Numbered from the stretch's first letter, positions 12,778 to 37,433 are shown. The stretch is 37,546 nucleotides of DNA from Candidatus Hadarchaeota archaeon (GCA_964564905.1 CAZMCI010000004.1:1-37546); one strand, 5' to 3'. Numbers and translations are program-made. Notes: a model not told the origin generated them from the sequence alone.

Positions 12778-14085
12778 CTATCCTATTTTCAGATATTCAT
12801 AAGCCTGCACAGCGGAGCCAAAACAATACTTTACCTCTTGATAGTCCCGTCTGAATTCTGCTACCTCGGCAGCTATCCGGTCCGCTTTCTCACCATCCAC
12901 CACTATACGTTTAATGAAGTCGGCTATCTTTTCCATTTCCCGTTCCTTCATGCCCAATCTCGTCACTTCCGAGGTGCCGAGCCTTATACCACCAGGATTT
13001 TTGTAATGTCTTCCCTCCTTTATGTCCCACGGGAGTAAATTACGATTTAGGATGATATTGGCTCGCTCTAACTTTTGTTCCAGTGTACCACCGTCGCCGT
13101 ACTTGGTGACGTCCACGACTATCGCGTGGGAACTGGTAAATCCTTGATCAGGACACAAAACGTCGAATCCCCTCTCATGAAGCGCTTGGCCCAACGCTCT
13201 GGCATTTTTTACTATCTGGGCAGCATACTCCCTTCCAAACTCGAGCATTTCCGCCAACGCCACCGCCAATGCTGCTACAGCGTGAAGATGATGATTGCTG
13301 ACAACCCCGGGGAAGACCGCCTTATTTATCGCATCTGCCAGTTCTTTCTTGCAGAGGATCATGCCGTGCTGTGGCCCGGGGAGGGTCTTATGCGTACTGC
13401 ACGTCATAACGTCTGCCCCCTCCTTCAACGGATCCTGAAATTGCCCTCCGGCTATCAATCCGGCCACGTGAGCCGCATCGTAGGCCACATGTGCCCCTAC
13501 ATCCCTCGCCACTTCGCCCAGTTCTTTCACGGGGTGGGGGAAGAGAAAAACGCTCCCCCCAAAGAGGGCCAACTTTGGCTTGACCTCTTTTATTTTTTTG
13601 GCTGCGGCATCCACATCTATGTTCATCTTCTGCTCATCGAACGGCCAATACTCAACATTCAGACCGTGCACAGCTCCGGCGGTGCCGCCAAATTTTTCCT
13701 TACCCATGCTTATGTGCCCGCCGCATGGGATGGCCAAACACATCATGGTATCCCCAGGCTTGGTCAACGCTGTGTACATTGCAAGATTGGCAACCACCCC
13801 GGAGATCGGCTGCACGTTTGCGTGTTCCACTTTGAATAACTCTTTCGCCAAGTTCATGGTGATAATCTCGACTTGATCGATGTACTTACAACCTGCGTAA
13901 ACGCGTTCCCCCGGCCATCCTTCCGCGTACCTATGCTGGAAATCGCTGATCATCGCCTCCCTAACAGCTGGGCTGGTGATGTTTTCACTCGCTATCAGTG
14001 GAATTGCCTTCTTAAACCAGTCGTGATGTTCTCGTAGCAGAGCAAAAGTACGTTCCATTGACTCTCTCGGTTGCAACAATCTCAC
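12778..14085 (-). CDS. glyA: Serine hydroxymethyltransferase
   Basis: 435 aa. PLP-lysine motif TCSTHKTLPGPQHG and overall SHMT architecture. Confidence 0.95.
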   Translation of the reverse strand: MRLLQPRESMERTFALLREHHDWFKKAIPLIASENITSPAVREAMISDFQHRYAEGWPGERVYAGCKYIDQVEIITMNLAKELFKVEHANVQPISGVVANLAMYTALTKPGDTMMCLAIPCGGHISMGKEKFGGTAGAVHGLNVEYWPFDEQKMNIDVDAAAKKIKEVKPKLALFGGSVFLFPHPVKELGEVARDVGAHVAYDAAHVAGLIAGGQFQDPLKEGADVMTCSTHKTLPGPQHGMILCKKELADAINKAVFPGVVSNHHLHAVAALAVALAEMLEFGREYAAQIVKNARALGQALHERGFDVLCPDQGFTSSHAIVVDVTKYGDGGTLEQKLERANIILNRNLLPWDIKEGRHYKNPGGIRLGTSEVTRLGMKEREMEKIADFIKRIVVDGEKADRIAAEVAEFRRDYQEVKYCFGSAVQAYEYLKIG

Positions 14086-19651: not shown

Positions 19652-20524
19652 TTGGAAGTCATACGAGAGTTCGATCCTTGGAATGATCCACTTTGTACAT
19701 GCCCGAAAAAATTTGGGCTTAATCCGTACACGGGTTGCTGTTATCGATGCATTTATTGCTACATCACTTCATACATACCACGTGCTTTTGAGTGCAGGCC
19801 AAAAGAAAATTTGCTTTCAAGGGTGAAACGTGACCTCAAACGAATTGATCGCCACCACATCATAAGCATGTCAAATAGCAGCGACCCATATCCTCCCATA
19901 GAATCTAACCTCAGACTCACTAGATCATGTTTGGAAATATTCCTACGCGAACGTTTCCCTGTACAGATCATGACGAAATCTGATCTTGTTGTCCGCGATA
20001 TCGATTTACTTTCAAAAATGAGATGCGTGGTGAGCTTCACCGTGACGACTCTAGATAAAAAGCTTAGTAGCATGTTGGAGCCCAACGCCCCCCCACCCGA
20101 CAGAAGACTTAAAGCCATGAAAAAGCTTTCTGACGCAGGTATCCCCGTTACCTCACGTTTGGATCCAATAATCCCTGGGTTAAACGATTCTGAAATTGAG
20201 CAAGTTGTGGACGCCGTGACCGCGCATGGCGCTCTTCACGTCACATCATCCACGTTTAAACCGCGAGCTGATAGCTGGAATCGGGTAAAAAAGGTTTTTC
20301 CGGAAGTTGCTTCCAAACTCCACCATCTGTACTTTGTCGAGGGAAAATTACATCATAACAGTTGGTACCTGCCAAAGACATTTAGAATTACTTTATTAAG
20401 TCGTGTCAGAAAGGCCTGTGACAAAAATAGGATCACCTTTGCCTCCTGCAGAGAAGGTCTGAAGTGGCTAACGACTGGAGCGAGTTGTGATGGCACGCAC
20501 CTTATCCCCAAAACTTTTGAGTGA
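19652..20524 (+). CDS. Radical SAM protein, SplB/DNA-repair-photolyase-like family (COG1533-like)
   Basis: NPYTGCCYRCIYCY contains the CX3CX2C cluster near the N-terminus. 290 aa. TTG start. Confidence 0.7.
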   Translation: MEVIREFDPWNDPLCTCPKKFGLNPYTGCCYRCIYCYITSYIPRAFECRPKENLLSRVKRDLKRIDRHHIISMSNSSDPYPPIESNLRLTRSCLEIFLRERFPVQIMTKSDLVVRDIDLLSKMRCVVSFTVTTLDKKLSSMLEPNAPPPDRRLKAMKKLSDAGIPVTSRLDPIIPGLNDSEIEQVVDAVTAHGALHVTSSTFKPRADSWNRVKKVFPEVASKLHHLYFVEGKLHHNSWYLPKTFRITLLSRVRKACDKNRITFASCREGLKWLTTGASCDGTHLIPKTFE

Positions 20525-20525
20525 A

Positions 20526-21167
20526 TTATTTTAGAACCTCTCCTGTACTCAAAAACCAGATATACAAGTCCAGCTCGCCCACTGGAACCCCAACCTTGTT
20601 TGCTATATCGACAAGCCTTCTTTCGAGATCAAGATATCGTCTGCGGGTAAGGGCCTTGGGGATCCTATCAACTAACCCATACGCATACATCATCCTCAGT
20701 ACGTGTCTATCCAATATCGCCACATCGCTAAATCCTACGTTCCTAAGAAAATGACTCGCTTCTTTCCATCCTATTCCTCTTACACTCCTCACTAACCACT
20801 CTCTCTTCTCATCTGTTTTCTCGAATTTCATTAGGATATCCTTGATGTTGTAAAACTTCCGGGCTTCCATTATAAACTGTGCTCTAGTGTTGGGAAATCT
20901 ATGCCCGGCCAGCCTAAGCTTCCTCTCCAGCTCCTCAACCGGCAATCTTAGAAATCCATCTGCGCCCAACTCATGTTGGATTTTCATTCCAAGTCTTGCG
21001 GTAGAATTTGCTGTGAGTATACAAAACGAAAGCTCTGAAAACCACTCTTTGTTGTTTCTCCTTCCCAGATCCATGAACTCCTGGATTCTTTGTTTCACAA
21101 GTGTGCCTACGTCGCTTTTCTTCACTTTATTGATTTCAGCTATCAAACGTTTGTCCATACTTTGCAC
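20526..21167 (-). CDS. ogg: 8-oxoguanine DNA glycosylase/AP lyase, archaeal Ogg2 type (HhH-GPD)
   Basis: FCILTANSTA, GIGWKEASHFLRNVGFSDVAILDRHV and ELDLYIWFLSTGEVLK match the Methanocaldococcus-type Ogg pattern. Confidence 0.88.
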   Translation of the reverse strand: MQSMDKRLIAEINKVKKSDVGTLVKQRIQEFMDLGRRNNKEWFSELSFCILTANSTARLGMKIQHELGADGFLRLPVEELERKLRLAGHRFPNTRAQFIMEARKFYNIKDILMKFEKTDEKREWLVRSVRGIGWKEASHFLRNVGFSDVAILDRHVLRMMYAYGLVDRIPKALTRRRYLDLERRLVDIANKVGVPVGELDLYIWFLSTGEVLK

Positions 21168-22285: not shown

Positions 22286-22463
22286 GCTGTTTTTCATTAG
22301 AAGCTTATTTTTCGTGTTTTTTCGTGATTCAAGCTGGGAATTTTCTTTATTCTAAACAAACACAGGTTTATTTTACTTTTACACCAAAAAATGACTTATC
22401 TAGTTTCATTATCTGTTTAAAACACCATTTTTTCTTATTTGTATATCGGAAGCTACGGTGATC

Positions 22464-22488
22464 GGGGAACCCCTTTGTTTCCACTGGA
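22464..22488 (-). repeat. Origin recognition box (ORB)-like element
   Basis: Minus strand reads TCCAGTGGAAACAAAGGGGTTCCCC. This is the ORB core TCCAGTGGAAAC plus the downstream G-rich element known from Pyrococcus and Sulfolobus origins. Confidence 0.55.
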
Positions 22489-22538
22489 GAGATATATTAC
22501 ATAACCAAACAATTTTATGTTATATTTACATAATAAAC

Positions 22539-22913
22539 ATGATGCCAACAGAGTTTGATAAAGGTTGGGTAGTATGTTTTATCGAAAATAAAGGCGCGTT
22601 TACTGTAAATAAGATTAAAATTACCAAAAAAACAAAAAACGGCGTCAAAAAATACACGTATAACAATCCTGCGTTTTATGTGGTTTCGAGAGACAGACTT
22701 CCACTGGAAATAGTCAAAAATACACTTGGAATGGGAAAAATAAGACATTATGGTGGTATTTTTCAATTGGAGATAAGAAAAAAAAGCGAACTCCTCAGAT
22801 TGGTGGGGTTTTTGGATGGGAATCTTAGGTCCGAAAAATCAAAACGGTTTGACTTATGGAAGAAACAGGTTCTGGAGTGGAAAACAAGGGCGTGGGGGGC
22901 CGGTGTCGGGTAA
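22539..22913 (+). CDS. Free-standing single-motif LAGLIDADG homing-endonuclease-like protein
   Basis: DKGWVVCFIENKGAFTV (LAGLIDADG-type helix), LEIVKNTLGMGKI and LLRLVGFLDGNLRSEKSKRFDLWKK are typical of the family. Start taken at ATGATG 22539 (the ORF is open from 22458). ATATATTA at 22491-22498. Confidence 0.6.
   Translation: MMPTEFDKGWVVCFIENKGAFTVNKIKITKKTKNGVKKYTYNNPAFYVVSRDRLPLEIVKNTLGMGKIRHYGGIFQLEIRKKSELLRLVGFLDGNLRSEKSKRFDLWKKQVLEWKTRAWGAGVG
22699..22710. repeat. ORB-core-like near-palindrome inside the LAGLIDADG ORF
   Basis: TTCCACTGGAAA; the reverse complement reads TTTCCAGTGGAA. Confidence 0.3.
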
Positions 22914-25300: not shown

Positions 25301-25825
25301 TTGAGCGTGGAGAGACTTGCTGATGTGGATGTCGAGGTGAAACAGGGAGACCTCACGAAACAGGTCGCGGACGCTATCTGCAATCCAGCCAACAGTCTGA
25401 TGTACATGGGCGGCGGAGCAGCTGGGGCGCTAAAACGAGCGGGAGGTGAGGAGATCGAGCGAGAAGCTTTAAAGCATGCTCCGGTTCCGGTGGGGATGTC
25501 GGTGGCAACGGGTGCCGGGAGACTAAAGGCCAGGTGGGTGATACATGCACCGACGATGGAACGCCCGGCGATGCGGACGACCAGTGAGAAGATACGCCGA
25601 GCAACGTTTTCCGCGCTGAAGACCGCCGACGAGGTTGGGGCAAAAAGCCTTGTGCTCCCAGGTATGGGCACCGGGGTCGGCGGGGTTTCTCCGAAGACAG
25701 CAGCAGAGGCCATGATCTGTGCATTAAAAGATTTTGCGCCGGGGTCAAAATCACTAAAAAAAGTACTCCTGTGCGACTTGAGCGGAGAGATGGTGAAGGC
25801 CTGGCTGGAGGCTTTGTCACAGTGA
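25301..25825 (+). CDS. Macro domain protein (ADP-ribose binding/hydrolase, Af1521-like)
   Basis: ICNPANSLMYMGGGAAGALKRAGG, VIHAP and PGMGTGVGG motifs. TTG/GTG start region. Confidence 0.85.
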   Translation: MSVERLADVDVEVKQGDLTKQVADAICNPANSLMYMGGGAAGALKRAGGEEIEREALKHAPVPVGMSVATGAGRLKARWVIHAPTMERPAMRTTSEKIRRATFSALKTADEVGAKSLVLPGMGTGVGGVSPKTAAEAMICALKDFAPGSKSLKKVLLCDLSGEMVKAWLEALSQ

Positions 25826-25853: not shown

Positions 25854-26135
25854 ATGACGATAAAATTTGCAGAGTTCAAGGCTCCGAAAGGTGTGGTCAA
25901 AGTTGAACTTGAGCTTCTCAATGAGAGGATATCTCGAATATCCTTTAGCGGTGATTTCTTCATGTATCCCGAGGAGGCCATCGAAAAACTTGAGGAATCT
26001 TTAAAGGGAGTGAGAGCCGATGAAAAGGATCTGAGAGCAGTCGTGAAAAAATTTTACACCTCAACCGGCACGAAAACGCCAATGCTGGAGCCAGAACATT
26101 GGGTCAAAGCCATCTTACAGGCGGCGGGTAAATGA
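25854..26135 (+). CDS. lplB: Lipoate-protein ligase C-terminal domain protein (LplB-type)
   Basis: 93 aa. KVELELLNERISRISFSGDFFMYPEEAIEKLEESLKG matches the LplA C-terminal accessory domain. ATGA overlap with lplA. Confidence 0.8.
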   Translation: MTIKFAEFKAPKGVVKVELELLNERISRISFSGDFFMYPEEAIEKLEESLKGVRADEKDLRAVVKKFYTSTGTKTPMLEPEHWVKAILQAAGK

Positions 26136-26890
26136 AAAGATGGAGGATATTGCCTCTACGGATCGATGACGCCTTTATGAGCATGGCAATCGACGAGGCG
26201 TTGTTGAAGTTGAACTCGGAGGGAAGGTCTCCAAATACACTTCGTTTTTGGCGCTGGTCACCATCGGCGGTATCTCTCGGATGTTTTCAAAGCGTTGAAC
26301 GTGAGGTAAACCTGGGTGTGGCAAAAGAATATGGTGTGGACGTGGTGAGACGAATTACCGGGGGAGGGGCCGTTTTTCACGATCAAGACGGCGAGCTGAC
26401 CTACAGCGTTGTGTGCGGACAAGATGATCTCCCCCTTGATATCATCGAGTCCTACAAGCTCATATGTGGAGGACTAGTGCATGGGTTTCAGAAACTTGGT
26501 CTACAAGCTGAATTTAGACCAGTGAACGATGTTCAAGTTGGTGGGAAAAAGATTTCAGGCAGCGCCCAGACACGCCGATGGGGCTCGGTACTCCAACATG
26601 GGACCGTGCTCATCTCTCCAGACATACACAAAATGTTTGAACTCCTGAAAGTTAGCCATGAAAAAATATCTGACAAATTCATAACCTCGGTTTTTGAACG
26701 GGTGACGACAGTGGAGCGAGAGCTTGGGCGAAAGCCGAGTTTTGAGGAGATACGTGAAGCAATGATTGCTGGATTCGAGGAGAGTTTGAGTGTGAAGCTG
26801 GTAAAAGGGAAGCTGACCGAGGAAGAGCTGAAGCTGGCAGAAGAACTCAGACCAAAATATGCGTCGGAAAAGTGGTTAAGAAAGAAATAA
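26132..26890 (+). CDS. lplA: Lipoate-protein ligase A catalytic domain
   Basis: RRITGGGAVFHD, GELTYS and GKKISGSAQ (catalytic Lys) motifs. 252 aa with no C-terminal domain, i.e. a split ligase as in Thermoplasma. Confidence 0.9.
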   Translation: MKRWRILPLRIDDAFMSMAIDEALLKLNSEGRSPNTLRFWRWSPSAVSLGCFQSVEREVNLGVAKEYGVDVVRRITGGGAVFHDQDGELTYSVVCGQDDLPLDIIESYKLICGGLVHGFQKLGLQAEFRPVNDVQVGGKKISGSAQTRRWGSVLQHGTVLISPDIHKMFELLKVSHEKISDKFITSVFERVTTVERELGRKPSFEEIREAMIAGFEESLSVKLVKGKLTEEELKLAEELRPKYASEKWLRKK

Positions 26891-26904
26891 GTAGTTGTTT
26901 TCCC

Positions 26905-28578
26905 TTATAGAGATGCAATAGTAAAGAAATACCAGATGTAATTCTCTCCGATGCTGTTCCATGCAAGGTCCATCGCTTCTTCTCCGATCGTCACACCATA
27001 TACAGTTTCAGGCATCAGGTTTTCTGTAGGGGTGAAGATAAGCGTGTTTTCGCTCCAGCTAAACTCGCCATCAACCTCAGGAAAAACTGAGAAAGCAGAT
27101 TGTGTGGCTGTTTTGCTCATTCTTTCGCTAAAAGTCACGGTTATAGAAGTAGAAACTGGCACATTCTCTTCTCCATTTTCTGGATGGGTAGATACCACAC
27201 TAGGAGTAATGTTATCCTTCACCCGGGAGGATATCCATTCTTGAGGATTTTCGACGCCCTTTCCACTACAAGGCGGGTATTGATTCGGCAGGTTTGTTTC
27301 AGTCCATTTTTTGAAAAATTCTTGATTTTGAAGAGCTGCGTCCTTTTCTTTGGCACTTTTGATGGCTTCCTGCCACAATTTTGCCCATGAGATGTCTCCT
27401 TTTTTAAAGTTCTCAGCCAAAGCCTCCATATCTTCGACCAATCCACTTACGGCTTCTAACCCCATGTCATCAGGGTTTAGATCTGGGCTGGCATCACCAT
27501 TTTCCACAGCCTCACGGTATTTTCCGAAAGTGGTGTTTTTGTGGTCCAAATCCCCCCACCCCATGCTGTCATTATCGGTGGAAGTATAGATTATCTCAAC
27601 TTTTTTATCCCATTTTTTCAGGGCTTCTATCCATTTGCCGGAATAACAAGCAGCCACGGTTACAGAGATATGCACACCATTTTCGAATTTGCATACCCAT
27701 TTGGAAAATTTCTCAGGAGTAAGCATGAATCCATCTACCATTTCAATAGCTCCATCGTTTTCCCTTCCGTGCCCAGTTATGTAAATTGAAAAGTTTTCAC
27801 ACGGCTTCAGCAGCTTTGAGAGACTCTCCATAACATTTTCAATATTGTTTTCTGTGGGCCTATTTTCTTCATCACCCCAAAGCTCGAGATGTGTGACGTC
27901 GAACCCAAAAACGTTTTCCATTAGATAGTGCCATTCGCCAGCCGATGTTGGGATGTCTTGATTGAAACCCGGCTCACCCTCGATTATCAGGGCTCGGTTT
28001 CTACTGGTGCTATTATTACCTGAACCGGTTAGATTTGGAGTCCTGACGAAACTTGCCATAACAGTAGAGTGGTTTTCGATGTACGTTGAGTACACCCAAT
28101 ACTGTTTGTTCCAGTATTCTTCCGATGATCCCCATAAGTCTGTCCTGTTGAGTTGTGGCCACCAGCTTTCTATCTTGATCTCATATTCTCCGGTCAAAGC
28201 GTTAATGAACACGTATCTAGTTGGGTGTGAAAACATAGCGTATGGGAAGTCGTTTATCCAGAAAAACCAAGTGTTCTCTTCTATAGTGTAAACATGTTCC
28301 GGAGCACCGTGCGAGGAGATGTTGTCTCCGGCTTTCAACATTTGTGGCCATAGAAGAGCGACTAGATCGTGATTCAGTTCTCCAGGCTTTATAACGTTTT
28401 CAAGCAGGATTTGCGTGGCATTTTCTGCAGTGAGCAGAGGTACAGCGATTTTCTCCTTTACCGGTTTTGACATTATAATGTAACTTATTCCCATAACCAC
28501 AACCGAGAGTACAATAATTCCCACACACAAGACAACGAGTCTCACCAGTTCACACTCATCAATCAATCTTGTGACCAC
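26905..28578 (-). CDS. Membrane-anchored extracytoplasmic protein with a clan-CD (legumain/caspase-like) Cys-peptidase-like core and a C-terminal Ig-like domain
   Basis: N-terminal TM LVVLCVGIIVLSVVVMGISYII. His-Cys dyad context IYITGHG ... VTVAACYSGKW. The C-terminal VVSTHPENGEENVPVSTSITVTFSERM..TVYGVTI resembles an SbsA/Big-type Ig domain. Confidence 0.5.
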   Translation of the reverse strand: MVTRLIDECELVRLVVLCVGIIVLSVVVMGISYIIMSKPVKEKIAVPLLTAENATQILLENVIKPGELNHDLVALLWPQMLKAGDNISSHGAPEHVYTIEENTWFFWINDFPYAMFSHPTRYVFINALTGEYEIKIESWWPQLNRTDLWGSSEEYWNKQYWVYSTYIENHSTVMASFVRTPNLTGSGNNSTSRNRALIIEGEPGFNQDIPTSAGEWHYLMENVFGFDVTHLELWGDEENRPTENNIENVMESLSKLLKPCENFSIYITGHGRENDGAIEMVDGFMLTPEKFSKWVCKFENGVHISVTVAACYSGKWIEALKKWDKKVEIIYTSTDNDSMGWGDLDHKNTTFGKYREAVENGDASPDLNPDDMGLEAVSGLVEDMEALAENFKKGDISWAKLWQEAIKSAKEKDAALQNQEFFKKWTETNLPNQYPPCSGKGVENPQEWISSRVKDNITPSVVSTHPENGEENVPVSTSITVTFSERMSKTATQSAFSVFPEVDGEFSWSENTLIFTPTENLMPETVYGVTIGEEAMDLAWNSIGENYIWYFFTIASL

Positions 28579-28633
28579 TAAATATAATATACTATTTGGA
28601 AATTATTTGAACTATTACATGGGGCAAACTTAC

Positions 28634-28654
28634 TTACTCAAAATCATTGAGTAA
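28634..28654. promoter_or_regulatory. Perfect 8-5-8 palindrome (operator-like) in a divergent promoter
   Basis: TTACTCAA-AATCA-TTGAGTAA, ending 14 nt upstream of the GTG start at 28668. Confidence 0.4.
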
Positions 28655-28667
28655 AAATAAAAACTAG

Positions 28668-29576
28668 GTGACAAATATCCAGACCGATGCTCTTAAAGTG
28701 AAGTTGGGCTCTGACCGTACATTTTATGCCTGTTATCCCCATCCTTACTATCCAACGCTTTCCATTACCGGGGCGGGGTGCTCCCTTCAATGTAAGCATT
28801 GTGGTCGCCACTATCTCAAACACATGATTCCGTGTCCCACACCGAAACAGTTTCTCAGGACTTGCAAAAAACTTTCTTCCAATGGGGCACGCGGATTGCT
28901 TTTAAGTGGGGGCTATAACGCAGAGGGCTACGTGCCGTTTGAGCCATTTCTCGACGCGATCGAGCGGGTGAAGCGTGAGACGGGGCTCTTCATCAGTGCT
29001 CATACAGGTCTGATGCCAAGGTGGTTAATTCACGAACTCGCGGGTGTGGGTCTTGACGCGGCATTTTTTGACGTGGTTGGCTCAAATGAAACGATCGAGC
29101 TTGTGTTCGGCATCGAGAGGAAAATCACGGAGTACAAGAGAACACTAAAGGTGCTAAGAAGAGAGGTGCGGTGGGTCGCACCTCACGTTTGTATCGGCCT
29201 CCACAAGGGCAAAATAGTGGGGGAGTTTGAGGCTCTTGAAATGATTTCAGCAGTAGATATTGATGTCTTGGTTTTTCTTGTGTTCGTGCCCACTACTGGG
29301 ACGGCATTTGAAAATGTTCAAGCACCCGATCCGAGTGCAGTAAGCGAGGTGATAAGCAAGGCAAGAGAGATGTTCCCAACTATTCCTTTGACTTTGGGTT
29401 GCATGAGACCACGGGTAGCCGGGAGGATCGAACTCGAACTCGCGGCTTTGAAAGCTGGCGTCAACCGAATGGAGATCCCCCATAAGCAAACTCTTGGGGT
29501 TGCCCGCAGTATGGGACTAATTGTCAAGAGACTCGATGCGTGTTGTGCGGTGCCGGATACGATTGCGGTAGATTGA
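28668..29576 (+). CDS. Radical SAM protein, candidate LipS-type lipoyl synthase component
   Basis: GAGCSLQCKHCG (CX3CX2C) plus extra Cys residues (IPCP, RTCKK, LGCMRP, DACCAVP). 302 aa. Lies in the lipoate island. Confidence 0.6.
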   Translation: MTNIQTDALKVKLGSDRTFYACYPHPYYPTLSITGAGCSLQCKHCGRHYLKHMIPCPTPKQFLRTCKKLSSNGARGLLLSGGYNAEGYVPFEPFLDAIERVKRETGLFISAHTGLMPRWLIHELAGVGLDAAFFDVVGSNETIELVFGIERKITEYKRTLKVLRREVRWVAPHVCIGLHKGKIVGEFEALEMISAVDIDVLVFLVFVPTTGTAFENVQAPDPSAVSEVISKAREMFPTIPLTLGCMRPRVAGRIELELAALKAGVNRMEIPHKQTLGVARSMGLIVKRLDACCAVPDTIAVD

Positions 29577-29614
29577 TTTGCCGATGACGAGAAATTGGTG
29601 GGGGGAGAAACGGC

Positions 29615-31402
29615 ATGCAGAAATTAAAACGCGAAACGGTGTTGATTTTGCTAGGTTTGTTTTTAGCTTCGTCGTTGATGTTTTCGTTTGTTCAAGAGGA
29701 GCCAACGCTTGGACTCACGGATGAGATAAAGGTGGATCAAGTGGGGTATCTGCCGAGTCACAAAAAACTCGCGTTTGTGACAGGTTCAACCGTAAAACCG
29801 GGAGCAAAGTTTTATGTAAAAGAGGCGAATACAGGCACCACGGTTTACACAGGGATGTTGAGTACTCAATCGTTTGAGTGTACCGATTCCGGAGATACCA
29901 TTTATTCCGCAGATTTTTCTGACCTCGCTGCTCCGGGCAGCTACTATCTCGAGGTGGAAGGGGTTGGCAGATCATTTAATTTTGATATTCAAGATAACAT
30001 CTATAACGAGCTTTTTTATCACGCAATGCGTTTCTTCTACTATCAAAGATGCGGGATGGATTTGGAGGCTCCGTATGCCGGGAAGTGGACCCATAAAGCC
30101 TGTCATCTCAATGATGCTGTGATTCATTCAAGTGCCGTTTCGGAGAAGAGACCAGAGGGAACTTTGGTCAGCTCTCCCGGCGGCTGGCACGACGCTGGCG
30201 ACTATGGAAAAAAGATCGTGAACGCTGGAATAACCGTGGCAACGCTGCTACGATTGTACGAGATGTTTCCCGAGAGGGTTGGGACGATCAACTTGAACAT
30301 ACCCGAGAGCGCGAACTCCATGCCCGACATTTTGGATGAGGTCAAGTACGAACTGGACTGGATGCTCACCATGCAGAGACCGGATGGGGCGGTGTACCAC
30401 AATATAGTAACCTCATCTTTTGCCTCCATGGGGACTGCACCTGAAAATGATTCAGCCACCAGATATTTTGGGCCAGTTTCCTCCTGTGCCACAGCGGATT
30501 TTGCAGGGGCAATGGCCATGGCAGCGAGGATCTACGAGAATTTTGATCCTCTTTTTGCGCAAAATTGTTTGGACGCGGCAGAAAAAGCTTGGGAGCATCT
30601 GGAAAATCACCCAAATATCTTCCCCTCTGGTGGTTACACCGATCCGGAGGGAATACACGGAACTGGGGGTTATTATGATACAGATGACAGCGACGAGCGA
30701 TTCTGGGCAGCAGCAGAATTATTTAGGACAACCGGGAAAACAAAGTACAACGAATACGTGAAGGCAAATTACAGTCGTTGGGGAGGAGTACATTATCCAG
30801 AGTCTTGGCGGTACGTTAATAATTTGGGGATGTTTGCTTATGCCTTTGCTACTCAGCCTGAAGTCGATGTTGATCTCCAAAATCAAATCAGGTCGAGCAT
30901 TGTCGATTACGCTAATAGCACCCTAAGTCGCATAACATCGACCGGTTATCGTGTCGCGCTAAACTCGGACGATTATTATTGGGGCTCAAACTCCATAGCT
31001 ATGTACTTTGCCGCAGGGTTGATAATCGCCAACGAGATACAGCCGAAACAAGAGTTCATCGAGGGAGCGCTCGACCAGCTACACTATATTTTGGGAAGGA
31101 ACGCGCTAAATCATTCTTTTGTGACTGGCATGGGGGAGAATTGTACAAGGTACCCATGGCACACTTGGATTTGCAATTACCCCGGTGACCCCCCGCCGGG
31201 TTTGCTTTCCGGCGGGCCCAACAAATACAAAGCTCCCTACGACAAAATACTATGTGAAATCATCGACTCCGGAGCACCGCCAGCCAAATGTTATGCGGAC
31301 AATTGCGTGATCCAAGGCACGATAGGCACATGGGCTTCAAATGAGCCTTGTATAAGTTATAACGCACCACTAGTTTTCGTTGCAGGGTACTTTTTGACTT
31401 GA
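29615..31402 (+). CDS. Secreted glycoside hydrolase family 9 (endoglucanase-like) with N-terminal Ig-like domain
   Basis: Signal/TM LILLGLFLASSLMFSFV. CelD_N-like IKVDQVGYLPSHKKLAFV. GH9 signatures GGWHDAGDYGKK, SFVTGMGENCTRYPWH and NEPCISYNAPLVFVAG. Confidence 0.85.
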   Translation: MQKLKRETVLILLGLFLASSLMFSFVQEEPTLGLTDEIKVDQVGYLPSHKKLAFVTGSTVKPGAKFYVKEANTGTTVYTGMLSTQSFECTDSGDTIYSADFSDLAAPGSYYLEVEGVGRSFNFDIQDNIYNELFYHAMRFFYYQRCGMDLEAPYAGKWTHKACHLNDAVIHSSAVSEKRPEGTLVSSPGGWHDAGDYGKKIVNAGITVATLLRLYEMFPERVGTINLNIPESANSMPDILDEVKYELDWMLTMQRPDGAVYHNIVTSSFASMGTAPENDSATRYFGPVSSCATADFAGAMAMAARIYENFDPLFAQNCLDAAEKAWEHLENHPNIFPSGGYTDPEGIHGTGGYYDTDDSDERFWAAAELFRTTGKTKYNEYVKANYSRWGGVHYPESWRYVNNLGMFAYAFATQPEVDVDLQNQIRSSIVDYANSTLSRITSTGYRVALNSDDYYWGSNSIAMYFAAGLIIANEIQPKQEFIEGALDQLHYILGRNALNHSFVTGMGENCTRYPWHTWICNYPGDPPPGLLSGGPNKYKAPYDKILCEIIDSGAPPAKCYADNCVIQGTIGTWASNEPCISYNAPLVFVAGYFLT

Positions 31403-31776
31403 CCTTCTTCCTCGAACGCGGGGCTTCCACCTTCCACTTGTGCCACGCCCGCCGCGGAGGCACAGGTTCGCTTCGTGCTGCCGGGAGTTCGCGAGGTTGC
31501 GCATCTCCACTCTGACCGCTTGAGCCCGCTTTTTCCACATGGAGCCAGCCGGGGAGGCGGATCTCTCATGTGCACTCAAGGGCTCGGTCAGGGGAGACTG
31601 GTCATTCCCGGTCGAGCCCCTCCCCTGAGGTATAGCCCGAGGCTAGTTTGGCTTTCGTCGCCTGAAAATTGGTCCCGGTTGTTATCTCCCTTTGGGGGTG
31701 TAATCGAAAGTATTTGACCTCAATTTTGTCCACCCTTTGAAAGCAGTGGTCTTCTTGAGGTGGTTCTTATAAAGAA
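31403..31776. other. GC-rich non-coding block with interleaved complementary segments
   Basis: No credible ORF; all frames are stop-poor with P/G/R/S-rich junk. GGGCTCG 31580-86 pairs with CGAGCCC 31613-19. TCAGGGGAG 31588-96 pairs with CTCCCCTGA 31620-28. Tandem CTTCCAC x2 at 31424-37. Confidence 0.4.
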
Positions 31777-31788
31777 TTGGGTGAGTAC

Positions 31789-32784
31789 ATGGAAAAAGTC
31801 AGGCAAGAAGGAAAATCTTCAGTTGCCAAAGTGAGGGTGGCGTTCGGCACCGGGGTTGTGCTCGGGCTCTGGCGGGGGCAGCTAGAGGTACCACCAACGA
31901 CCGCACACCTTCTGACCTACCACGATGGCCGTTGCAGCGCGAACTGCAAGTTCTGTCCCCAGGCGCGCGGGAGCACAGCAGATCTAAAAATGCTGTCGCG
32001 AGTGGTCTGGCCGCATGTTGAGCTAAAAAGAGTTCTCGCAGCGCTGGGCGAAAATTCAAATGAGTTTAGGCGCATCTGTATCCAAGCACTCAATTATCCG
32101 GGGGTCTTGGGTGACATTTTCGAACTTATAGCGCGCGTGAAGAGCGTCTGCGATCTGCCTATTTCCGTTTCGTGCCAACCTCTAGACACAGAGGATATGC
32201 GGAAGCTGGCAGATGCCGGAGTCGAGCGGGTCAGCGTGGCGCTGGATGCTGCGACGCCGGAACTCTTCGAGCGCATTAAGGGTGGCGGATACACTTGGGA
32301 TGGGCATATCAAAGCGCTGAAACAAGCGCGGATCGTCTTCGGTAATTTTGTCACAACGCATCTTATCGTGGGGCTTGGGGAAAGCGAAGAAGAAATGATC
32401 AGGACAATTCAATTTTTGCACGATATGGGCATAACCGTTGGATTATTTGCGTTTACACCTGTCCCGGGTACACCCCTTTCTTCTAAGACACCTCCGGACA
32501 TCACAAGCTATCGTAAAATTCAGTTAGCTAGATTTTTGATAGTCAGCGAAAAGAAGAGGGTGGAGCAAATGCGTTTTTTGAATGGCCGCTTGACTGATTT
32601 TGGCATGGATCGAGAAGCGTTAGAAGTGATTGTGAGATCCGGTAAGCCGTTCATGACATCTGGATGTCCGCACTGTAATCGTCCATTCTACAATGAGTCC
32701 CCTCTTGGTCCTCTTTATAATTATCCAAGAAGACCAACGTCTGATGACCTCAAGGTTATTCAAAATGAGTTAGGCAATCTGTGA
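31789..32784 (+). CDS. Radical SAM protein (BioB-related), candidate LipS-type lipoyl synthase component
   Basis: GRCSANCKFCPQ (CX3CX2C), additional Cys in SVCDLPISVSCQP and SGCPHCN. ATG 31789 is preceded by GGGTGAG (the ORF is open from TTG 31777). Confidence 0.6.
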   Translation: MEKVRQEGKSSVAKVRVAFGTGVVLGLWRGQLEVPPTTAHLLTYHDGRCSANCKFCPQARGSTADLKMLSRVVWPHVELKRVLAALGENSNEFRRICIQALNYPGVLGDIFELIARVKSVCDLPISVSCQPLDTEDMRKLADAGVERVSVALDAATPELFERIKGGGYTWDGHIKALKQARIVFGNFVTTHLIVGLGESEEEMIRTIQFLHDMGITVGLFAFTPVPGTPLSSKTPPDITSYRKIQLARFLIVSEKKRVEQMRFLNGRLTDFGMDREALEVIVRSGKPFMTSGCPHCNRPFYNESPLGPLYNYPRRPTSDDLKVIQNELGNL

Positions 32785-33006
32785 ACTACTCCTAGCTTTC
32801 ACAGGGAGCTTTTCTGCTTCAGCGACGGGACTTGTTTTTGATGGGTAAAGACGAAACCTGTACGATAACGTTGACTCATCCCTCATGTATTTAGCCGGGG
32901 TTCTTTACATAGAAAAAATTCGCCTCTCATCCCTTTCCTTTCGGAAGGGGACTTCGGCGATAAAGTTAAATTTTTGAGTACAAGTTTTTTTGCGTGGGGT
33001 TTGGCA

Positions 33007-33429
33007 ATGGATGGAGAGCACCTGGTTCGCGAAGGGCTCTATTACACCCGGGAGCATGAGTGGGCCAAAGTGGAGGGAGCATTAGTCCGCGTCGGGGTAA
33101 CAGATTACGCACAGAAAAAACTAGGGGATGTCGTGTATGTTGAATTACCAGATATTGGAAAACAAATTAGGCAAGTAGCCGAGCCCAAAACAAGTGATAT
33201 GGAAATTGGAACGCTTGAGTCGATCAAGGCGGTTTCAGTTGTTTACAGCCCACTGAGCGGAGTTGTCAAAGAAGTAAATTCTTCTCTTGCGGATAAACCG
33301 GAACTTGTCAATAGCAGCCCCTACGATGATGGATGGATATGTGTGCTTGAGCCAAGTTCCCTCGAGTCGGAGCTCGAGAAACTGATGGACTCCAAAAACT
33401 ACATTGAATACATAAAAAAGATCAAGTGA
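33007..33429 (+). CDS. gcvH: Glycine cleavage system H protein (lipoyl carrier)
   Basis: VGVTDYAQKKLGDVVYVELP and the lipoyl-lysine motif LESIKAVS. ATG 33007 preferred (the ORF is open from TTG 32974). Confidence 0.92.
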   Translation: MDGEHLVREGLYYTREHEWAKVEGALVRVGVTDYAQKKLGDVVYVELPDIGKQIRQVAEPKTSDMEIGTLESIKAVSVVYSPLSGVVKEVNSSLADKPELVNSSPYDDGWICVLEPSSLESELEKLMDSKNYIEYIKKIK

Positions 33430-33439
33430 ACTGAGTTAG

Positions 33440-34819
33440 ATGGTTCACCAATACATTCCGAACGTATCCAAAATTCGAAGGCAAATGATGGACGAGGTTG
33501 GAATAAAAGATATTGAAGAACTTTTCGCTGATGTTCCCCAAGAGATAAAATTAGATCGAGAACTTCGTCTGCCACCACCCATGTCGGAGCCTGAGGTCAG
33601 GCGACATCTTTCGTCCATCTTATCGAAGAATAAACCGTTTACACGTATGCCAATGTTTTTGGGTGGAGGTGTATGGCCTCATCACGTACCTTCTCATGTT
33701 CGTTCAGTGATCCATCGTTCAGAGTTTTTGACCTCCTACACGCCCTATCAAGCGGAGGTAAGCCAAGGAGTACTTCAGGCGCTGTTCGAGTTTCAGAGCA
33801 TGATCTGCGAGCTCGTGGGTCTTGATGTTGCAAATGCTTCGATGTATGACTGGGCAACAGCGCTTGGAGAGGCTGCTCTCATGTGTGCTCGTGTTACGGG
33901 CAGACGGAAGTTCATCGTTCCGGAGATAATTTCACGGGATCGTCTTTCCGTACTGCAGAATTATACGTCGGGCGCACACCTGCGGATAGTCAAAATTGAA
34001 CCCGAAAAAGATACGGGACAGCTTAACCTGAAAAAACTTCGCCGAGAAGTCGATGAAGACACCGCTGGAGTTTATATAGAAAATCCAAGTTACTTGGGAT
34101 TTTTGGAGACCCGTGTTGATGAAATAGCAGAGATAGCACACAAGGTCGGAGCTAGGTTCGTCGTTGGAGTAAATCCGATTTCACTGGGAATAGTCAAAGC
34201 GCCTGGGGACTACGGAGCCGATATCGTCGTTGGGGAGGGGCAACCACTGGGCAATCCAGTAAACTTTGGTGGGCCTGCTTTGGGGATATTTGCATGTCGC
34301 GATGATGAAAAGCTGATACGGCAGCTTCCGGGGAGGATTGTTGGAATGACCACGACGAGAGACGGAGAAACTTGGGGATATACAATGGTCCTGCAGACGC
34401 GGGAACAGCACATTCGTCGTGAACGGGCTACATCTAATATTTGCTCAAACGAGGCGCTCTGCGCAGTGGCCGCAGCGATCTATCTAGCTTCACTCGGACC
34501 CACGGGATTTCGAGATCTAGCGGAAACATGTGCAGCTAACGCCAAGTATGCAATGGATGGACTGAATCGGATCGATGGATTGGAAGCGCCCGTGTTCGAC
34601 TCGCCTCACTTTAATGAATTCACCCTGAGATGTGAGAGACCTGGGCTTTCGATAGAAAAGTTCAACAGAGAACTCCTAAAACACGGGGTTCATGGAGGAA
34701 AAACGTTAAAAAAAGAGTTTCCCGAGCTAGGAGAGACATCTCTTTTGTGCGTGACCGAGATTCACACAAAGGAAGATATCGATCTTTTGGTGGAGGCAGC
34801 ATCCCGAATCGTGAAGTGA
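33440..34819 (+). CDS. gcvPA: Glycine dehydrogenase (decarboxylating) subunit 1
   Basis: 459 aa. [21 protein letters not shown] and [20 protein letters not shown] are GcvPA signatures. Confidence 0.93.
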
Positions 34820-36327
34820 TGAATATGAGTTATCACCAGGCCAGATGGGCTCGCGGCGACCGTTTGGAACCTCTTGTGTTCGAGCTTTCCAGCAAAGATC
34901 GCAAAGGAATTCGTTTACCACAGAAACTTCCTGCAAGGCCGGAGATTCCCGATAAACTTATCCGCGATTCGTTGGAGTTGCCGGAGTTGTCCGAGCCGGA
35001 GGTGGTAAGACATTATACTAGGTTATCTCAGATGAACTACGGCGTCGATCTCGTTTTTTACCCGATAGGCTCGTGCACCATGAAGTACAACCCAAAGATA
35101 TGTGATGAACTCGCGGCTTCGGAGGAGGCGGTCTTTATCCATCCAGATCAAGATGAGGACACAGTTCAAGGTGCCCTTGAACTAATGTACCGTTTGGAGC
35201 ATTTCTTATCTGAAATAGGTGGAGTTTCTCGCGTATGTCTTCATCCATCTGCCGGGGCACATGGTGAGCTGCTCGGCATGTTGTTGACGCGCGCGTATCA
35301 CAGCTCTAGGGGGGAGGAGCGCTCGGATGTGATAATCCCGGACTCGGCCCACGGCACGAACTTCGCGAGCGGTGCCATGGCTGGCTTTCACGTCGTCGTA
35401 ATTCCCTCCAATAACCGCGGGAGGGTGGACCTGGAAGCACTAAAAGCAGCAGTTTCCGACCGGACTGCCGCTTTGATGCTCACGAACCCCAACACGCTGG
35501 GGCTGTTTGAGGACGAAATACTGGAGATCGCGGAGGTCGTCCATGAGGCCGGAGGACTTCTCTACTACGATGGCGCGAACATGAACGGCATCCTGGGAAA
35601 GGTCAGACCGGGCGATATGGGGTTCGATATAGTACACTTCAACCTGCACAAAACATTTTCAACCCCCCACGGCGGCGGAGGCCCAGGAGCCGGTCCAGTT
35701 GGCGTCGTTCAGAAATTGGAGAAATTTCTGCCGGTACCTACCGTGGAATACGACAGAAAAAGGAGACGTTATTATCTCGATTACGATCGCCCTGAATCAA
35801 TAGGAAAGATAAGGTCATTTTACGGAAATTTTGGCGTGCTTGTCAAGGCCTACGTGTATATAATGATGATGGGGCCGGCCGGGCTCAGGGAGGTTGGAGA
35901 GACCGCAGTTTTAAACGCGAATTACGTGATGCGTAAAATGGCTGATGTTCGTGGATTTGAAGTAAAATTTAACGGTCCATGTAAACACGAGGTCGTATTC
36001 AGCGCTGAACCCCTGAAACGTGAGACAGGTGTGACGGCACGGGATGTAGCAAAACGTTTGTTGGATTACGGGATGCATGCGCCAACTTATTATTTTCCAC
36101 CGATCGTCCCCGAGGCGCTGATGGTGGAGCCCACAGAGACCGAGACAAAAGAAGAGCTCGATAGATTTGTACTGGCCATGAGGGCGATAGCCGAGGAGGC
36201 ACGTTCTGACCCTGAAAAATTGCGAAGGGCTCCAACGAGGACCGCGATTGAAAGATTGGATGAGGTCAAGGCGTCACGGGAACCTATTTTGAGCTGGCGG
36301 ATGTACAAAAACCGGGCGAAGTTATGA
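34819..36327 (+). CDS. gcvPB: Glycine dehydrogenase (decarboxylating) subunit 2
   Basis: PLP-lysine context [16 protein letters not shown]. Start ATG overlaps the gcvPA stop (TGATG). The ORF track extends it spuriously to 34747. Confidence 0.93.
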
Positions 36328-37433
36328 AGAAGTTGGGTCTGATCGTCAACCCCATAGCGGGCATGGGGGGGCGCGTGGGGTTGAAGGGAACAGATGGACG
36401 AGATGTCCTCCGTAGGGCAATAATGCTCGGTGCTAGACCAGTGGCTCCGGATAGGGCCATAGCAGCTTTAAAAAACTTGGCTCAAGTCAAAAACTTGGTT
36501 CGGATTGTGACTTGCTCTCACGAAATGGGTGAGGATGAGGCGAGGATGTGTGGTTTTGACCCACAAGTTATACATCATGTGAGGTCCGGAGAGACAACCG
36601 CCGCGGATACGAAAGAAGCTGCGTACAAGATGAAGCGAGATGGTGTGGATCTGATTCTTTTCGTGGGAGGTGATGGGACTGCTAGGGACATATACGAAGT
36701 GGTTGGAGGAGACGTGCCTATCCTTGGCGCTCCAGCCGGGGTAAAAGTTTATTCGGCTACATTCGCGAACACACCTGAGCTGGCAGGTATTGTAGCGGCC
36801 CGTTTTTTGACGGAGGGACTTCCAGTACGAGAAGCCGAGGTGATGGATATAGATGAGGAAGCCTTTCGAAAAAATCAGTTGATGTCGGAGCTCAAGGGAT
36901 ATGCAAAAGTCCCGTACGAGCCTGTGATGATGCAGGCGGCCAAGGAGAGCAGCACCGGATTTGATCTGGCGGACCAGAAGGCAATAGCACGGTGGATGGT
37001 CGATCTCATGGAACGTGGACGTATGTATATCCTGGGACCCGGCACGACTACACGTGCTGTGGCGGAAGAACTTGGTATCTACAATTCTTCCCTACTGGGT
37101 GTGGATTTGATCATGGATCACAAGCTTGTTGCACGCGATGTCGATGAATGCCAAATTTTAAAGGAAATTGAAAATATTCCAGCCGCCATAATAGTCAGCC
37201 CGATAGGCAAACAGGGCTTCATTTTCGGTAGGGGGAACCAGCAAATAAGCGCACGCGTCATCAGGAAGGTCGGAAAGAAAAATATCGTGGTGGTGGCAAC
37301 ACCACACAAACTTTCCACGATTTCCACTTTGAAGGTAGACACAGGAGACCCTGAGTTGGACGAGGAGCTTCAGGGGTATATTCCAGTCGTGGTAGGTTAC
37401 CTCCAGACCAAGATGGTCAAAGTTACCAACTAA
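36324..37433 (+). CDS. ATP-NAD kinase-like family protein (COG3199 / AcoX-like)
   Basis: [11 protein letters not shown] and VGGDGTARD (the NAD-kinase/DAG-kinase GGDGT motif). 369 aa. ATGA overlap with gcvPB. Confidence 0.7.

Follow-up and report, generated by a model that had tools for sequence, protein, structure and literature searches.

The window analysed here is the entire 37,546-base contig (GCA_964564905.1, CAZMCI010000004.1) of an uncultured Hadarchaeota (Hadesarchaea) archaeon, and our subject is a group of genes between positions 25,854 and 37,433 that concerns assembly of the lipoyl cofactor. An earlier note on this DNA, made from the sequence alone, had described a lipoate island with a split lipoate ligase, a lipoyl carrier protein and two different radical S-adenosylmethionine (SAM) genes, and had proposed that the latter encode the two-protein lipoyl synthase LipS1/LipS2. 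Gene identities were based on a list of the open reading frames (ORFs) of the window and on Pfam and NCBIfam profiles scored against their curated cut-offs, and every ORF named by the note was present where it had been placed. The ligase, LipS1, LipS2 and lipoyl carrier genes all lie inside 7.6 kb of the window. The contig is archaeal, as it carries PolD DP1/DP2, Cdc6, an intein-bearing MCM gene and an archaeal tyrosyl-tRNA synthetase (TyrRS). Its best match in the genome collection was 'Hadesarchaea archaeon B75_G9' from Guaymas, a metagenome-assembled genome (MAG; locus L008), whose GcvH, GcvPA and GcvPB are 97-98% identical to those of the window at the protein level.

The first radical-SAM gene, lipS1, occupies positions 28668-29576 on the plus strand, starts with GTG and carries the motif CSLQCKHC (28779-28802). 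The second, lipS2 (31789-32784, plus strand), carries CSANCKFC (31933-31956); its longest open frame begins at a TTG at 31777. With NF053742, the equivalog model of LipS1 (cut-off 230), LipS1 reached 259.3 bits and covered positions 7-268 of the 268 in the profile; with NF053743, the equivalog model of LipS2 (cut-off 270), LipS2 reached 355.2 bits, covering all of positions 1-292 of 292. On rival models the scores were far lower. The BioB model TIGR00433, with a cut-off of 225, gave 28.5 bits for LipS1 and 74.3 bits for LipS2; PylB gave 17.3 bits for LipS1, and PylB/HmdB gave 38 bits for LipS2. No PylB, HmdB or MoaA model exceeded 39 bits on either ORF, against cut-offs above 280, and hidden Markov models (HMMs) of LipA reached at most about 21 bits against cut-offs of 203-310 (LipS2, 21.2 bits against 310). 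In BLASTP comparisons over nearly the full length, LipS1 was 37% identical to TK2109 (E 2e-58) and LipS2 was 42% identical to TK2248 (E 3e-82), the two Thermococcus kodakarensis proteins that the note had named as counterparts. Sequences of TK2109 and TK2248 were taken from the supplement of PMC9585515, and errors of optical character recognition were corrected against the gene as printed there and the residue numbering of the paper. Taken together, the comparisons with TK2109, TK2248, LipA, BioB and PylB models that the note had recommended placed LipS1 and LipS2 first. The two window proteins are barely alike in sequence (BLASTP E 0.023), and they are not paralogous copies of one another.

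Mutagenesis of the T. kodakarensis enzymes has defined their cluster ligands (PMC9585515). In TK2109 these are C27, C31 and C34 for the radical-SAM cluster and C230, C276, C277 and H159 for the auxiliary cluster, and in TK2248 they are C39, C43 and C46, and C85, C276, C279 and H178, respectively. In the window LipS1, C38, C42 and C45 align with C27, C31 and C34, and C245, C292/C293 and H173 correspond to C230, C276/C277 and H159; all of these residues were invariant in an alignment of 120 sequences. In the window LipS2, C49/C53/C56, C293/C296 and H191 correspond to C39/C43/C46, C276/C279 and H178 and were likewise invariant in 120 sequences, and C97, the equivalent of C85, was a cysteine in 119 of the 120. 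The extra cysteines reported earlier for both ORFs were indeed found, at C22, C56, C66, C175, C245, C292 and C293 in LipS1 and at C97, C121, C129, C293 and C296 in LipS2. Because both ORFs pass their equivalog models, align with TK2109 and TK2248 and keep all of the ligands defined by mutagenesis, the proposal that they are LipS1 and LipS2 is upheld. Membership of the two families and conservation of the tested ligands were observed directly.

We also compared the predicted structure of LipS1 with known structures. The AlphaFold2 model (predicted local distance difference test, pLDDT, 92.9; predicted template modelling score, pTM, 0.91) found its best folds in the Protein Data Bank (PDB) among BioB, PylB and HydE (Foldseek, E ~1e-12; template modelling score, TM, 0.62-0.66), and LipA/LIAS ranked lower, with a TM of about 0.5. 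The model thus predicts a full TIM-barrel radical-SAM fold of the BioB/PylB/HydE type, which agrees with LipS proteins having been described as 'BioB-annotated' enzymes. A search of the PDB for a solved structure of LipS1 or LipS2 found none; the nearest sequences were BioB, PylB and HydE, at E values of 1e-3 to 1e-7.

The database gene call for LipS1 of this contig (P0001) differs from the ORF described here. It is a protein of 250 amino acids that starts at the internal Met53 and has neither the CX3CX2C motif nor a Pfam match, and the closest relative, P0002, is shortened in the same way. The 52 N-terminal residues skipped by the gene caller are kept in homologues at 93-100% coverage, and these show that the N-terminus beginning at the GTG at 28668 is real. 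Automatic calling of radical-SAM genes with a GTG start is therefore an annotation trap, which here removed the radical-SAM motif of LipS1.

The note had further stated that the window has no canonical LipA and no LipB. In a six-frame motif scan, which covered open frames of at least 100 codons across the 37.5-kb window, no CX4CX5C motif was found, and no scanned ORF matched a LipA or LipB profile, in agreement with that statement. The sole RSSY of the window lies in a spurious 105-codon antisense frame within the MCM gene. Archaea with the LplAB-LipS1/S2 pathway usually, though not always, do without canonical LipA, LipB and LipM. In a published table of 13 Hadarchaeota genomes, LipA and the combination of LipA and LipB each occur in none, Lpl in six, LipS1 with LipS2 in five (all of them with Lpl) and GcvH in 46% (Tanabe S4 table, PMC10332631); sHdr and LbpA are likewise at zero and LipT is absent from the phylum in the same table. 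Because LipA was found in none of those 13 genomes, a lipA gene elsewhere in the genome of this host is unlikely.

The same scan found three CX3CX2C motifs in the whole window, two of which are those of lipS1 and lipS2. The third gene, at 19652-20524 on the plus strand, is not LipA; it belongs to the PA0069/Rv2578c/spore-photoproduct-lyase-like radical-SAM family. It stands tail-to-tail with the gene for an Ogg 8-oxoguanine glycosylase (20526-21167, minus strand), and the two probably represent a DNA-repair pairing.

Upstream of lipS1 lie the two genes of the ligase. The lplB gene (25854-26135, plus strand) encodes the small subunit, corresponding to the C-terminal domain, of a bipartite lipoate/octanoate-protein ligase; it matched Pfam Lip_prot_lig_C, scored 73.4 bits on NCBIfam NF053749 (cut-off 65) and matched chain C of PDB entry 3R07, LplB of Thermoplasma acidophilum (E 9e-15). 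The catalytic subunit is encoded by lplA (26132-26890, plus strand; Pfam LplA-B_cat, E 2.3e-54), whose start overlaps the lplB stop by 4 nt. LplA matched T. acidophilum LplA in 2ARS/3R07_A (E 7e-36; 9e-36 for 3R07_A), and it contains the motif GGKKISGSAQ with K140. Judged by these similarities, the pair would form a bipartite LplA-LplB ligase of the T. acidophilum type.

Downstream of lipS2, gcvH (33007-33429, plus strand) encodes the lipoyl carrier, the presumed substrate of the pathway. The protein scored 135.5 bits on TIGR00527 (cut-off 115.85) and failed the GcvH-like models. Its frame is open from a TTG at 32974, but the start is most likely the ATG at 33007. Counted from this ATG, the lysine of its ESIKA motif is K74, and it aligns with the lipoyl-lysine of the ESVKA motif in the H proteins of pea and Thermus. 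Relative to these H proteins, the window protein has a 7-residue insertion, RQVAEPK, at residues ~55-61, before the lipoyl-lysine hairpin. The gcvPA gene (33440-34819, plus strand) encodes subunit 1 of the aminomethyl-transferring glycine dehydrogenase (NCBIfam NF001696, 608 bits, cut-off 364) and gcvPB (34819-36327, plus strand) encodes subunit 2 (NF003346, 746.5 bits, cut-off 441). The most likely start of gcvPB is the ATG at 34819, which shares 1 nt with the TGA of gcvPA. Both are canonical P-protein genes. A gene for serine hydroxymethyltransferase (12778-14085, minus strand) lies 19 kb upstream.

We then compared the locus with its relatives. In nine related loci (L001-L007, L038 from MSBL1, and L039), lplB, lplA, lipS1, lipS2 and gcvH follow one another without interruption and often with overlapping genes, and most of the nine continue into gcvPA and gcvPB; in L005 the string ends at lipS2, with no adjoining gcvH. 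The order in the relatives is (macro)-lplB-lplA-lipS1-lipS2-gcvH-gcvPA-gcvPB-(NAD-kinase-like), in which the macro-domain and kinase-like genes are often present. More broadly, linkage to lplAB and gcvH is kept in loci of Hadarchaeota, MSBL1, Thermoproteota and Bacillota. The linkage of lplAB, gcvH and both radical-SAM ORFs is real, and even tighter in the relatives; the region is not a mobile island but a conserved chromosomal operon. The conservation of this operon among relatives is itself a direct observation. One side observation concerns L005 (GCA_030016755.1, JASEJC010000003.1), which NCBI labels 'Candidatus Hodarchaeaceae archaeon', an Asgard name. It has the synteny of Hadesarchaea, MinD-DUF3147-macro-lplB-lplA-lipS1-lipS2, with protein identities of 66-82% (60% for lipS1), and the label may reflect a confusion with Hadarchaeaceae.

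In the window, two unrelated genes for exported proteins, neither of them mentioned in the note, interrupt this order. The first (26905-28578, minus strand), between lplA and lipS1, encodes a membrane-anchored surface protein that carries a Big_5 Ig-like domain at its C-terminus (Pfam E 3.8e-19) and a weak Peptidase_C13-like region that stays below the cut-off (E 0.002). At 43.4%, the GC content of the gene is lower than the mean of the window (49.7%). It is absent from the close relative L036 and from L001-L007, where lplA abuts lipS1, and L008 has a different minus-strand gene of 606 amino acids in the same slot. The second (29615-31402, plus strand), between lipS1 and lipS2, encodes a secreted endoglucanase of glycoside hydrolase family 9 (GH9; Glyco_hydro_9, E 8.4e-90) with an N-terminal CelD_N Ig-like domain (E 1.8e-21). 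This gene is absent from L001-L008, L038 and L039 and present in L037, and in L036 it has been cut to a remnant of ~195 amino acids by a 1.38-kb deletion that removed the sequence corresponding to window 30190-31573. The Big_5 and GH9 genes are lineage-specific insertions outside the lipoate system, and neither of them disables the operon. The borders of both insertions were searched for inverted repeats and target-site duplications, and only short repeats at chance level came up.

Between the GH9 gene and lipS2 lies a non-coding spacer of 386 nt (31403-31788; 57% GC), in which a TATA-like sequence, TTATAAA, stands roughly 15-20 nt upstream of the lipS2 ATG. It had no Rfam match, no protein similarity and no copies elsewhere, and its fold z-score was marginal at -1.8; only its 3' 216 nt (31573-31788) are common to L036. 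The lipS1 gene is preceded by an AT-rich intergenic region (22% GC) that contains TATA-like boxes. A scan of the region for sigma-70 promoters and terminators gave counts equal to shuffle expectation and is uninformative for an archaeon.

Divergence from L008, the closest match of the contig, was uneven along the operon. The gcv genes had a synonymous divergence (dS) of 0.12-0.17, lipS2 one of 0.95 and lipS1 one of 1.7; lipS1 is the gene of the cluster most diverged from close relatives, with 62% amino acid identity to L008. At the DNA level, identity to L008 falls between ~29024 and 31831 (3125-3690 of L008), and lipS2 is diverged in its 5' half. This mosaic pattern suggests that recombination inside the operon has replaced one allele by another, diverged one. 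We also calculated the ratio of nonsynonymous to synonymous divergence (dN/dS) against two close relatives; lipS1 gave values of 0.25 and 0.16, and lipS2 gave 0.215 and 0.13. Because all of these values fall at 0.13-0.25, they indicate that lipS1 and lipS2 are under purifying selection. The locus cleanly illustrates how a conserved operon for cofactor assembly can tolerate the insertion of unrelated genes, one of them for a secreted enzyme, and remain under purifying selection.

Taken together, these data make us highly confident that the region is a chromosomal operon for lipoyl-cofactor assembly by LplAB and LipS1/LipS2, joined to the genes of its clients, gcvH and gcvPA/gcvPB. The order of events can be outlined from the T. 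kodakarensis and bacterial systems. LplA-LplB would use ATP to activate free octanoate, or lipoate obtained by scavenging, and would transfer it to K74 of apo-GcvH. LipS2 would then cleave SAM reductively at the [4Fe-4S] cluster of its CX3CX2C motif, remove a hydrogen from C8 and supply the sulfur for C8 from its auxiliary [4Fe-4S] cluster (C97, C293, C296 and H191), so that octanoyl-lysine would be converted first to 8-mercaptooctanoyl-lysine. LipS1 would carry out the same chemistry at C6 of this intermediate, with its auxiliary cluster held by C245, C292, C293 and H173, and would thereby convert 8-mercaptooctanoyl-lysine to lipoyl-lysine. Both enzymes are expected to act through a 5'-deoxyadenosyl radical (PMC9585515). 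The resulting lipoyl-GcvH would serve the P protein, GcvPA/GcvPB, in glycine cleavage or synthesis. The note had regarded the ligase as a salvage enzyme linked to the system; the link stands, but the role would not be merely salvage, as the ligase is expected to install the octanoyl substrate on which LipS2 and then LipS1 act (PMC10332631).

Several observations weigh against this reading. The closest characterised orthologues of LipS1 and LipS2 are only 37-42% identical to the window proteins, and none is from Hadarchaeota. At the position of S119 of TK2109, the window LipS1 has Phe133 (29064-29066), where the other 119 homologues have D, S or N; the published model puts S119 close to the auxiliary cluster, and this residue is not regarded as a conserved ligand (Neti et al., PMC9585515). 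LplA scored only 233 bits on the NCBIfam 'exception' model LplA_large (NF053750), whose cut-off is 480 and which is deliberately narrow. The GH9 insertion abolishes the translational coupling of lipS1 and lipS2 that is seen in relatives, so co-expression of the two is assumed here. The finding that lipA, lipB and lipM do not occur covers the 37.5-kb window, and one of them may yet lie elsewhere in the MAG. Finally, gcvT and lpd were found neither in the window nor in the flanks of the operon, out to 10 kb, in its relatives (L002 and L003), so that the glycine-cleavage system of this lineage may be incomplete.

We weighed three other explanations. In the first, the operon is decaying: the insertions would have broken its coupling, lipS1 or lipS2 or both would be turning into pseudogenes, and the host would scavenge lipoate through LplAB. 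An operon that is contiguous elsewhere and is split here by two foreign genes invites this view, as do the low identity of LipS1 to L008 next to nearly identical gcv genes, the unique Phe133 and the database call of a LipS1 protein without CX3CX2C. Nonetheless, both genes are full length with every ligand intact, both show purifying selection, the 52 residues at the N-terminus of LipS1 are conserved in homologues, and TATA-like boxes precede lipS1 as well as lipS2. The gene that did decay in L036 is the inserted GH9 gene, not lipS1 or lipS2. Given the intact ligands, the full length and the purifying selection, we rejected pseudogene formation, which we consider very improbable.

A second explanation, which we consider more improbable still, is that one or both radical-SAM ORFs encode biotin synthase or a BioB-like enzyme such as HydE, PylB, HmdB or ThiH, and that their linkage to lipoate genes is coincidental. 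Several homologues are labelled 'biotin synthase' or 'biotin synthase-related radical SAM' in their source databases, and the closest solved structures, by sequence as well as by fold, are BioB, PylB and HydE. But the label 'biotin synthase' is a misannotation for the LipS family (Neti et al., PMC9585515), and the profile scores, with both LipS equivalogs passed and BioB, PylB, HmdB and MoaA far below their cut-offs, effectively refute a BioB identity. The ligand pattern is that of the auxiliary [4Fe-4S] sites of LipS proteins, no bioF/A/D, hyd or pyl gene was found among the profile-scanned ORFs of the window, and the linkage to lplAB and gcvH recurs from Hadarchaeota to Bacillota.

Least probable of all, and also rejected, is service to the GcvH-like LbpA of a sulfur-oxidising sHdr system rather than to the H protein of glycine cleavage: lipS1 and lipS2 were first noticed, in bacteria, beside shdr-lbpA clusters (PMC10332631), but the H protein here passes the GcvH equivalog and fails the GcvH-like models, gcvPA and gcvPB lie directly 3' of gcvH, none of the profile-scanned ORFs of the window is hdr-like, and the published table records neither sHdr nor LbpA in Hadarchaeota. 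Assembly of the lipoyl group on GcvH by LplAB, LipS2 and LipS1 is thus the reading that we retain.

A further gene, which the note did not list, lies at the 3' end of the interval. It belongs to a large 'ATP-NAD kinase family' (36324-37433, plus strand; 369 amino acids), its start overlaps the stop of gcvPB, to which it is translationally coupled, and it is diacylglycerol kinase-like, matching Pfam NAD_kinase (E 3.4e-20) and NAD_kinase_C (E 3.9e-15). A GGDGT motif is invariant in the alignment of its family. The protein matched no NCBIfam equivalog and no PDB sequence, and its structural model (pLDDT 84.7, pTM 0.56) gave only weak fold matches, to diacylglycerol kinases of the DgkB type and phosphofructokinase (E ~1e-3, TM 0.24-0.31). 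Homologues of this gene lie 3' of gcvPB in Hadarchaeota (L002, L003/L004) and in MSBL1 (L038). In L039, also of Hadarchaeota, the homologue directly follows gcvH and there is no gcvP at the locus, and in L022, a Bacillota MAG, the order is gcvT-gcvH-gcvPA-gcvPB-lipS1-lipS2-lplA-lpd-kinase. On plasmids of Rhodococcus qingshengii, Sphingomonas psychrotolerans, Gemmobacter fulvus and Paracoccus aminophilus (loci L040 and L043-L045), a homologue stands immediately upstream of gcvPA-gcvPB. Homologues beside gcvPA-gcvPB were 39-68% identical, and those of Peptoclostridium and Natronosalvus are not beside these genes. The family is thus reproducibly linked by neighbourhood to the split GcvPA/GcvPB, a link on which we found no literature. 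AcoX of acetoin operons may belong to the same family. The gene is a conserved, uncharacterised member of the operon. Instead of a housekeeping NAD kinase, its product could be a dedicated kinase, or a regulator that binds nucleotides, acting on the H protein or on the split P protein, and we suggest, tentatively and with the odds against it, that it works with the lipoyl/glycine-cleavage machinery as a functional partner hitherto unrecognised.

At the other end, 28 nt upstream of lplB, a macro-domain gene (25301-25825, plus strand) encodes an ADP-ribose-binding protein like Af1521 (Pfam Macro, E 2.5e-28). The protein scored 195 bits on NF001666, below the cut-off of 246, and 36.9 bits on NF003163, a model of protein-ADP-ribose hydrolases with a cut-off of 272; its best matches are ADP-ribose-binding models of the Af1521 type. 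A macro gene directly precedes lplB in L001, L002, L005 and L036, and in several relatives the two are separated by 4 nt or have overlapping starts. ABC-transporter genes part it from lplB in L003/L006, and it is absent from L007 and L039. The macro gene, a conserved neighbour in many Hadarchaeota, may or may not be part of the lipoate system. An additional suggestion, weaker than that for the kinase-like protein, is that its coupling to lplB is a sign that archaeal lipoylation is controlled through ADP-ribose. We rejected the bacterial module of SirTM, zinc macrodomain, GcvH-L and LplA2 as a model for this arrangement, since neither the window nor the related loci examined contain a sirtuin and the protein has no Zn-macro signature.

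Two side observations concern LAGLIDADG sequences elsewhere in the window. The MCM gene (8748-12317, minus strand) is split by an intein that contains an endonuclease domain of the LAGLIDADG type, and a free-standing LAGLIDADG ORF (22458-22913, plus strand) lies between a PrimPol-like gene and the TyrRS gene, a position that is kept in L001 and L002.

The closest characterised system is that of T. kodakarensis, in which LipS1 (TK2109) and LipS2 (TK2248) have been shown biochemically to be a two-protein lipoyl synthase (Neti et al. 2022, PMC9585515). The window proteins belong to the same families and have the same CX3CX2C motifs and the same auxiliary ligand sets of three cysteines and a histidine each; also common to the proteins of both organisms are a C-terminal CC in LipS1 and CxxC in LipS2, and the lack of CX4CX5C and RSSY. 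The numbers of their locus tags suggest that the two T. kodakarensis genes are unlinked. In the window and its relatives, lipS1 and lipS2 lie in one cluster with each other, with lplAB and with gcvH-gcvP. Compared with TK2109, the window LipS1 is longer by 11 residues at the N-terminus and has the phenylalanine at the position of S119.

The pathway of Lpl with LipS1/LipS2 has been proved genetically in bacteria and mapped over GTDB (Tanabe et al. 2023, PMC10332631). Lpl with LipS1/LipS2 occurs in 17% of archaeal genomes, and the Hadarchaeota LipS1/LipS2 are monophyletic in trees (PMC10332631). The window resembles the bacterial sLpl(AB)-LipS1/S2(-LipT) systems of Thioalkalivibrio and Hyphomicrobium denitrificans in that an octanoate ligase would act first, followed by LipS2 and LipS1, and in that the gene families are clustered. 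It differs in that the ligase is bipartite, with separate lplB and lplA genes, whereas the bacterial ligase is fused; in that it has no lipT, lipX or lipY; and in that its client is GcvH with GcvPA/GcvPB, not LbpA/sHdr. Its order, lplB-lplA-lipS1-lipS2, also differs from the 'typical archaeal' order lipS2-lplA-lplB-lipS1 (PMC10332631). As in T. acidophilum (3R07, 2ARS), the catalytic and accessory domains of the ligase are on two polypeptides; Thermoplasmatota mostly use LipA (Tanabe table, PMC10332631).

LipA/LIAS catalyses the same net reaction by radical-SAM chemistry, in which an auxiliary [4Fe-4S] cluster is sacrificed on protein-bound octanoyl-lysine. It is, however, one polypeptide that makes both insertions, at C6 first, and it carries an N-terminal CX4CX5C and a C-terminal RSSY, both of which are absent from the window proteins. 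Among solved folds, that of BioB, of types I and II, comes closest (Foldseek E 6e-13 to 9e-12, TM 0.62-0.66), and there too the terminal carbon is sulfurated first; it differs in its substrate and in the arrangement of its auxiliary ligands, and the window proteins score far under the cut-off of its HMM. A two-protein lipoyl synthase could be recognised correctly from motif and context in raw sequence. Because the GTDB mapping covers the phylum and curated equivalog HMMs name both genes automatically, the system is already known, in Hadarchaeota as well. The locus is one more orthologous instance of it, and its local peculiarities are only the gene order and the two insertions.

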